Below, piece after piece: positions 3,295 to 10,006 of a stretch of DNA of 32,212 bases. This stretch comes from Malassezia furfur. Its lineage: Eukaryota. The stretch lies in NCBI GenBank assembly GCA_052055015.1, contig JBQJIT010000086.1; one strand, 5' to 3'. The position numbers and the translations under genes are program-made. Numbering within the stretch: the first letter of the stretch is position 1; every line of letters begins with the position of its first letter. Under the pieces are notes generated by a model that did not search any database, was not told the DNA's origin, and was given only the letters and a program-made list of their open reading frames with translations.

Positions 3295-10006
<6,712 letters not shown>

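Follow-up and report, generated by a model that had tools for sequence, protein, structure and literature searches.

A candidate +1 frameshift at an apparently unassigned AGG codon in the last cox1 intron of Malassezia furfur

This study deals with a broken gene inside the last cox1 intron of the basidiomycete yeast Malassezia furfur, located on a stretch of 32,212 nucleotides (GenBank assembly GCA_052055015.1, contig JBQJIT010000086.1) that was analyzed as a whole and is hereafter called the window. The window is mitochondrial DNA and carries ribosomal RNAs, 17 transfer RNAs (tRNAs), nad, cox, cob, and atp genes, and rps3. On its minus strand lies cox1, split by introns with LAGLIDADG open reading frames (ORFs), and the ORF of the last of these introns changes frame at a single AGG codon. 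We propose, with moderate confidence and judging from the sequence, that the ribosome makes a +1 shift at this AGG, which appears to be unassigned. Below, we set out the gene and its product, the age of the break and the selection acting on either side of it, the decoding of AGG together with the competing explanations, and finally the likeness to known systems.

The broken gene in the last cox1 intron

The Rfam group I model gave no match to the intron up to an E value of 1, and its class (group IB) is therefore taken from Table S2 of PMC10113387. The same table lists cox1i5 at position 1113 in the M. furfur strains with five cox1 introns, in agreement with the label "intron 5" that an earlier note on this DNA had used. 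Around the break the minus strand reads ...CAT CGT TAT TAT GGT AGG ATC TCT TAC ATC TGT TAC CAA TAA. In frame 0 the ORF runs from the ATG at 4986 to a stop at 4767-4765, eight codons past AGG, giving a product of 73 amino acids. When AGGA is taken as one step (translation table 4), a product of 259 amino acids (P0001) is obtained without interruption, from ATG 4986 to the TAA at 4208-4206. Put differently, one inserted A separates two neighboring Gly codons (GGT / A / GGA). The earlier note had given these coordinates for the break, a length of 259 residues for the joined product, a single in-frame TGA, and a stop at 4206, all of which proved correct on re-reading the minus strand. It had also described the codon usage downstream of the shift as host-like, and this holds as well: on a codon-adaptation index that takes the core genes as reference, the N half (frame 0) scores 0.84 and the C half (+1 frame) 0.72, as against 0.12-0.32 for the off-frames, which contain 7-25 stops each. 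Coding in two frames is therefore not a product of chance. For comparison, the unbroken intron ORFs score 0.59-0.73 and rps3 scores 0.67.

On either side of the break, the joined product belongs to one protein family. Pfam LAGLIDADG_1 (PF00961) matches residues 20-113 (profile positions 2-97 of 102, E 1.1e-23), a segment that spans the junction at residue 66, and two LAGLIDADG stretches are found by Pfam in the joined product, which has the double motif and a two-domain alpha-beta fold. The best solved relative by sequence is I-AniI (residues 17-244, E 3.7e-22), whose alignment likewise crosses the junction, followed by the bI3 maturase (E 3.3e-13). An AlphaFold model of the joined product, based on a 44-sequence alignment, reached a predicted local distance difference test score (pLDDT) of 93.7 and a predicted template modeling score (pTM) of 0.91, and in it the G65-G66 junction forms part of the turn that connects helix 53-64 to strand 67-72. 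The top Foldseek matches of this model are 2ab5 (bI3 maturase) and 3eh8, both with probability 1.00, the closest folds being those of the bI3 maturase and I-AniI. Since the Pfam and I-AniI matches run from frame 0 into the +1 frame at a defined point and the model fold is intact, we conclude that the two frames encode one protein. Homology and predicted fold place the gene among the free-standing LAGLIDADG genes with two motifs, of the I-AniI / bI3-maturase type.

According to a figure legend in a preprint (bioRxiv 10.1101/2022.12.06.519325), DNA cleavage by LAGLIDADG proteins needs an acidic residue in each motif. The window allele has neither: the catalytic acids are replaced by N26 (LLEGNGS; 4909-4911, minus) and K163 (FIEAKGS; 4497-4499, minus). 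Related alleles (P0098, P0103, and P0109) keep D and E at these positions. The function retained in M. furfur is more likely intron splicing (as a putative maturase) than DNA cleavage, because both acids are replaced, selection on the gene persists (see below), and the product resembles bI3 and I-AniI.

Table 1. Positions of the elements discussed in the text, numbered along the window
Feature	Position	Strand	Remarks
Last cox1 intron	3778..5045 (boundaries approximate)	minus	Placed from exon frames; inserted after ...LDIALHD
N half of LAGLIDADG gene	4792..4986	minus	Frame 0, M1-G65; motif 1 at 4935-4906; N26 at catalytic acid position
Shift site TAT TAT GGT AGG	4789..4800	minus	P-site GGT 4794-4792; A-site AGG 4791-4789; proposed skipped base A4791; +1 codon GGA 4790-4788
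Frame-0 tail after AGG (I S Y I C Y Q stop)	4765..4788	minus	Differs between lineages; reads as out-of-frame sequence
ATG in +1 frame inside TAT-GGT (T ATG GTA GGA)	4794..4796	minus	Possible start of a separate C-half polypeptide (rival explanation)
C half of LAGLIDADG gene	4206..4790	minus	+1 frame, G66-K259 plus TAA; motif 2 at 4523-4494; K163 at catalytic acid position
In-frame TGA at W82	4740..4742	minus	Trp position nearly invariant in relatives
tRNA-Gly(UCC)	21453..21525	plus	Only tRNA-Gly in the window; normal 7-nucleotide anticodon loop; proposed reader of GGU and GGA
tRNA-Trp, anticodon CCA	26126..26197	plus	Bears on the reading of the in-frame TGA

Elsewhere in cox1, in the part of the window at about 5460-7800 (minus), the obvious exons lack the codons for WFFG that belong between ...LYQHLF and HPEVYIL.... 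Two cox1 introns only 11 nucleotides apart, at 715 and 726, are listed in Table S2 of PMC10113387, and a mini-exon is thus implied; a simple pattern search for a WFFG mini-exon between these two introns did not find it.

Age of the insertion and selection on the two halves

The earlier note had named a sequencing error or a mutation private to this strain as ways in which its reading could fail. Both are ruled out by a metagenome contig, by a cluster of database proteins, and by the N-terminal ORFs of related lineages. The shift site was compared at the DNA level between the window and the metagenome contig, and the further lineages were compared as protein ORFs. A search of metagenome contigs returned this contig (L001), which matches the window at 97.5% identity across 5,176 aligned columns and shows the identical TAT TAT GGT AGG ATC, plus an unrelated one (L002). 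Genome contigs yielded five loci at about 50% identity, and a search of viral contigs gave no match. At the protein level, the 234-residue ORF in the +1 frame (P0002) represents a 90% cluster of 11 sequences, 8 of which are named Malassezia furfur by their source. All 11 share the invariant out-of-frame stretch leading into the junction, from which it follows that the break is present in all 11.

Searching with the 73-residue frame-0 ORF led to four clusters of N-terminal ORFs. When the window's ORF and 20 database ORFs, together from five lineages, are aligned, 20 of the 21 end in ...YYGR followed by six to eight unrelated residues and a stop. The lineages with this ending include those of P0089, P0090, P0106, and P0091, which are 68-74% identical in the full alignment and have diverse out-of-frame tails (GRNSSTFYY in P0089, GRITTIYH(W) in P0090 and P0106, and GRNCSIYCK in P0091). 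Beyond the break, the C-half ORFs of M. yamatoensis (P0011, 55% identity) and of P0003 (63% identity) begin with MVG, equivalent to T ATG GTA GGA, and reach the normal C terminus. An intron at cox1 position 1097-1113 is listed for M. furfur, M. brasiliensis, M. obtusa, M. yamatoensis, and Malassezia sp. CBS17886 (PMC10113387 Table S2), and a comparison of 20 M. furfur mitogenomes reports, in the sections that cover this intron, an ORF in the last cox1 intron of every strain (PMC8510979). As far as these sequence comparisons go, the insertion is old and ancestral to several species, occurring in M. furfur as well as in at least four other lineages.

The proteins deposited for M. furfur (233-234 amino acids, starting with MVLFKLII...) use a start in the +1 frame upstream of the break (4795-4910, minus); their first ~38 residues come from reading out of frame, and they lack the first LAGLIDADG motif. 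We rejected the MVLFK start of this GenBank-style 234-residue ORF as the true N terminus, as the two DNA-verified polymorphisms in its upstream part are silent in frame 0 and change the +1 frame.

Selection was assessed by comparing the window with L001, which differ by only 18 substitutions in the gene. The N half, read in frame 0, has two synonymous and no nonsynonymous changes. The C half has eight of each in the +1 frame, corresponding to an omega of 0.24, compared with 0.69 and 0.76 in the wrong frames. Both halves combined give an omega of 0.19, and so few nonsynonymous changes would be expected under neutrality with a binomial p of 7e-4. Insertions and deletions (indels) point the same way: there are none in the 777-nucleotide ORF versus seven events in the 425-nucleotide noncoding 3' part of the same intron, which shows 29 gap columns and 3.3% substitutions. 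The earlier note had also held that accumulated stops downstream of the break would speak against continued translation, and such stops are not seen in the C-half ORFs of the carriers. In a neutral simulation of the C half (substitutions only, 2,000 trials per identity level, scored for TAA and TAG), the frame stayed free of stops in 0.7%, 0.45%, and 0.25% of trials at 63%, 58%, and 55% identity, respectively. From the selection, open-frame, and codon-adaptation results together, we conclude that purifying selection has acted on both halves since the insertion arose, and that by all appearances they have long been translated, each in its own frame.

A further difference between the two contigs concerns the neighboring i3b LAGLIDADG ORF, in which L001 has a 6-nucleotide in-frame insertion (an extra Asp-Asn repeat) near 6232 (minus). 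This indel keeps the frame, unlike many non-triplet indels in noncoding intron DNA.

A homolog from M. vespertilionis (P0005), with 64% identity to the joined product and 27% to the i1 ORF, is broken at another place. It passes the first site in frame, with NFGG (in NFGGTIL) as the equivalent of YGG, and ends with ...EWLA RIYWSRRIILYS. With all codings enumerated, a +1 reading of this tail can be matched to the second LAGLIDADG motif of its relatives (GFIEAEGSFSIR and GFIEAEGSFCIR) at all 12 of its positions; among 25,536 control windows, only 4 allow such a complete match. The break was read from the protein tail of this N-side ORF, and the enumeration forces the Arg codon to AGG or CGG, followed by an A that yields a GGA Gly codon in the +1 frame. 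Gly codons make up 8 of the 259 in the joined gene and GGA only 2; we estimate that a random single-base insertion would create an [A/C]GG-A site in front of a Gly GGA well under 1% of the time. Read in this way, the break in P0005 is a second and independent one, of the same form as that of M. furfur ([A/C]GG-A before Gly GGA).

Decoding of AGG and the competing explanations

The codon at the break is one that the exons of the window's core genes do not use. Among 3,883 codons of stop-to-stop core frames, we counted no AGA, one AGG, no TGA, one TTA, one TTG, and six ATA. The single AGG sits in the intronic flank before a cob exon and, more generally, all these rare codons lie in intronic or 5' flanks, leaving the exons without AGA, AGG, TTA, TTG, ATA, or TGA. 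Arg is always CGN and Leu always CTN in the core exons. Nor does AGR occur in rps3 or in two intron ORFs, i1 and i3b. The earlier note had not seen AGG in the core genes; its claim is thereby borne out and extended to AGA (in core exons and rps3). On the plus strand of the DNA, AGA occurs 722 times and AGG 284 times, so the absence of both from the exons is not mutational. The other in-frame AGR codons in ORFs of the window are confined to one AGG and one AGA at 7015-7013 and 6955-6953 (minus), in the C-terminal tail of the i3a LAGLIDADG ORF, whose translation may effectively end, or shift, at these codons after the second domain.

Two other features of codon usage deserve mention. Codons ending in C are nearly absent from the four-fold boxes (CTC, CCC, ACC, GTC, GGC, and CGC are all at 0) and common in two-fold codons (TTC 216 versus TTT 115). 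The reduced codon set of the exons looks like the outcome of selection matched to a minimal set of tRNAs, rather than of plain AT bias.

Neither a tRNA-Arg nor a tRNA-Leu is found among the window's 17 tRNAs. Malassezia mitogenomes carry 22-32 tRNAs each (PMC10113387); in those of M. furfur, trnR and trnL are located in the inverted repeat, which lies outside the window, according to the portions of PMC8510979 on gene order, and a published supplement names trnR(tcg) for M. vespertilionis. From the codon usage and these published gene lists, we infer a single CGN-reading tRNA-Arg, with AGR left unassigned.

Under the proposed mechanism, a peptidyl-tRNA-Gly(UCC) would sit on GGU in the P site, held by a weak U:U wobble, when AGG enters the A site. 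With neither a cognate tRNA nor a release factor to read it, the ribosome would pause, and another tRNA-Gly(UCC) could bind the perfectly matched +1 codon GGA. In this way A4791 would be skipped and the 259-residue protein completed, by a "hungry codon" shift of the Ty3 or Perkinsus type, for which slippery re-pairing is unnecessary. On GUA, the P-site tRNA would re-pair only poorly, which makes such a non-slip shift likelier than a slip of the Ty1 type. The output of the joined product is probably low, because a TGA in the gene must be read as Trp as well, and the tRNA-Trp has the anticodon CCA. We also considered a quadruplet-reading tRNA; the only tRNA-Gly of the window has a normal 7-nucleotide loop (CUUCCAA), and this idea finds no support among the window's tRNAs.

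Several observations weigh against a ribosomal shift. No downstream stimulatory RNA structure is predicted (z = -0.01). The junction coincides with an ATG in the +1 frame, from which the C half could be initiated separately. The gene needs W82 to be read from TGA while the only tRNA-Trp in the window has the anticodon CCA. Part of the tRNA set lies outside the window, and an AGR-reading tRNA may conceivably be imported. The frame-0 Arg of the further lineages may be encoded by AGG or by CGG, and a CGG would not fit a shift at an unassigned codon. One of the 21 N-terminal ORFs (P0107, known from one contig) ends ...KKIL..W, and its break is not of the AGG type. The number of substitutions behind the selection test is small. 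Finally, Table S2 of PMC10113387 puts the only M. vespertilionis cox1 intron at 383, which conflicts with the homology of P0005: the position-383 ORF of the window is the i1 ORF, to which P0005 has the low identity given above. Either the position in Table S2 is wrong or the P0005 gene lies in a different intron.

The ATG at the junction is the starting point of an alternative that we consider unlikely, namely that the gene is split. Frame 0 would end as the 73-residue N fragment, with AGG decoded or tolerated, a C half of ~195 amino acids would start at this ATG, and the two would assemble noncovalently into a working LAGLIDADG protein. Overlapping mitochondrial ORFs are translated from one mRNA in animals, and MVG starts the C-half ORF in all three lineages with a visible start (M. 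furfur, P0003, and P0011). Selection on both halves is explained equally well in this manner. The ATG is, however, an automatic by-product of TAT-GGT that need not be selected, and the cut would interrupt a turn midway through domain 1 of the model rather than separate the two domains. The polymorphisms upstream of the site, silent in frame 0 and altering the +1 frame, further indicate that the longer annotated +1 start is not under selection. Splitting also leaves both the AGG at the break and the same [A/C]GG-A form in M. vespertilionis unexplained. The latter also applies to a correction at the RNA level, by which the extra A would be removed or bypassed in the transcript through editing or polymerase slippage, so that an ordinary mRNA is translated: an AGG signature at two independent sites has no place in it. 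The site (TATGGTAGGATC) has no homopolymer run that would favor slippage, and to our knowledge nucleotide-deletion editing has not been described in fungal mitochondria. None of our observations speaks for such a correction, and we rate it the least credible option and a very improbable one.

Frameshifted intron endonuclease genes are common in fungal mitogenomes, and the insertion could simply have inactivated a gene that is now decaying, its conservation stemming from recent ancestry or from constraints on the intron RNA. The loss of both catalytic acids in the window allele would fit such decay, as would the in-frame TGA in the presence of a CCA-type tRNA-Trp and the polymorphism at W34, which is TGG in the window (4887-4885) and TGA in L001. 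TGA is confined to the intron ORFs, the core genes having 53 TGG versus 0 TGA. On the other hand, TGA at Trp-aligned positions is not peculiar to the broken gene: the otherwise unbroken i1 ORF (8456-9529, minus) has three, all at Trp positions in typical LAGLIDADG contexts. Decay would moreover have to be reconciled with an omega that is low in the correct frames only, with an ORF free of indels next to noncoding intron sequence that has accumulated them, with a C half that has stayed open at 55-63% identity (an outcome of less than 1% of neutral trials), and with codon adaptation on par with or above that of the unbroken intron ORFs and rps3. We therefore regard a pseudogene as quite unlikely.

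Returning to the frameshift, a wider and more tentative proposal can be built on it, which we think possible rather than probable. After the loss of AGR decoding, AGG would have become a dedicated +1 shift signal in Malassezia mitochondria, U-AGG-A being read as Gly. Single-A insertions before Gly codons would then be silent, and they would have been fixed at least twice independently in an intron maturase, where an inefficient shift and a poorly read TGA would together throttle expression. Such a signal would be the first in Basidiomycota and would use a codon without any tRNA.

Significance and comparison with known systems

Mitochondrial +1 frameshifting at unused codons has so far come from a few scattered groups, i.e., Perkinsus, some animals, and Saccharomycetaceae yeasts. 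In the literature on Malassezia mitogenomes and on programmed frameshifts, we found no report of the site in Malassezia or in an intron-encoded LAGLIDADG gene, and the word "frameshift" occurs zero times in two Malassezia mitogenome papers, PMC10113387 and PMC8510979 (for the latter, the count covers the article and not its supplements). If the proposal is true, a conserved site in a culturable basidiomycete yeast would offer a tractable system in which the 0-frame codon apparently has no tRNA at all, and the two independent sites of the same form would provide a built-in comparative test. It would also bear on how codon loss shapes the mutations that a genome can tolerate. On a practical note, the deposited annotations of the gene begin out of frame and leave out the first LAGLIDADG motif; in fungal mitogenomes, the codon at the break should be checked before frameshifted intron ORFs are called pseudogenes.

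As far as the protein is concerned, the best sequence and fold matches are I-AniI and bI3 of Saccharomyces cerevisiae, both monomeric, two-motif, and intron-encoded like the M. furfur product. I-AniI is bifunctional, combining homing endonuclease and maturase activities, and bI3 is a maturase as stated in the title of entry 2ab5. The genes of both are uninterrupted, whereas that of M. furfur is broken, and the catalytic positions of I-AniI are D and E where the M. furfur allele has N and K.

The classical cases of +1 frameshifting are the S. cerevisiae elements Ty3 (GCG-AGU-U) and Ty1 (CUU-AGG-C), which resemble the M. furfur proposal in that the A site holds a 0-frame AGN codon that is decoded slowly. 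In Ty3, the incoming tRNA binds the +1 codon without re-pairing of the peptidyl-tRNA, and weak pairing in the P site helps; the equivalent in M. furfur would be the U:U wobble of tRNA-Gly(UCC) on GGU. The Ty elements differ in that they use cytoplasmic ribosomes and a tRNA that is rare, and that the shift sets the Gag:Pol ratio. In M. furfur the tRNA is apparently absent, and the shift would rescue one protein.

Two further parallels come from fungal mitochondria. In fission-yeast mitogenomes, TGA is disfavored for lack of an efficient tRNA, as described in part of a preprint (bioRxiv 10.1101/2022.12.06.519325, citing Bullerwell et al. 2003). From that same part of the text, the likeness to M. 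furfur extends to a strong preference for TGG, a tRNA-Trp ill-suited to TGA, and LAGLIDADG genes whose catalytic residues are often mutated; the parallel concerns the TGA codon and not the frameshift. A +1C frameshift at CTGY in mitochondria of Kazachstania and other Saccharomycetaceae is mentioned in passages of PMC10701893 and PMC11789488 that cite Szaboova et al. (2018). As summarized there, it is a fungal mitochondrial +1 shift tied to one codon and the base that follows, like that proposed here. Kazachstania uses CTG-Y, belongs to the Ascomycota, and shifts in standard mitochondrial genes, as opposed to AGG-A in an intron gene of a member of the Basidiomycota.

The nearest parallel in the codon itself is found in the mitochondrial cox1 of Perkinsus marinus, where a frameshift occurs at every AGG within UAGGY, which is read as Gly, according to the sections of PMC2952869 that describe it. 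The mechanism proposed in those sections is a ribosome stalled for lack of a tRNA, or else quadruplet reading. On the basis of the same sections, Perkinsus has several features in common with the M. furfur proposal: the setting is mitochondrial, ordinary decoding never uses AGG as a sense codon, passing over its first base puts GGN on a conserved Gly, and the preceding base is U. The base after AGG is Y in Perkinsus and A (giving GGA) in M. furfur. Also by that account, Perkinsus has ten sites in an essential core gene whose mRNA was sequenced, whereas M. furfur, a basidiomycete yeast, has one site in an intron-encoded LAGLIDADG gene known from DNA.
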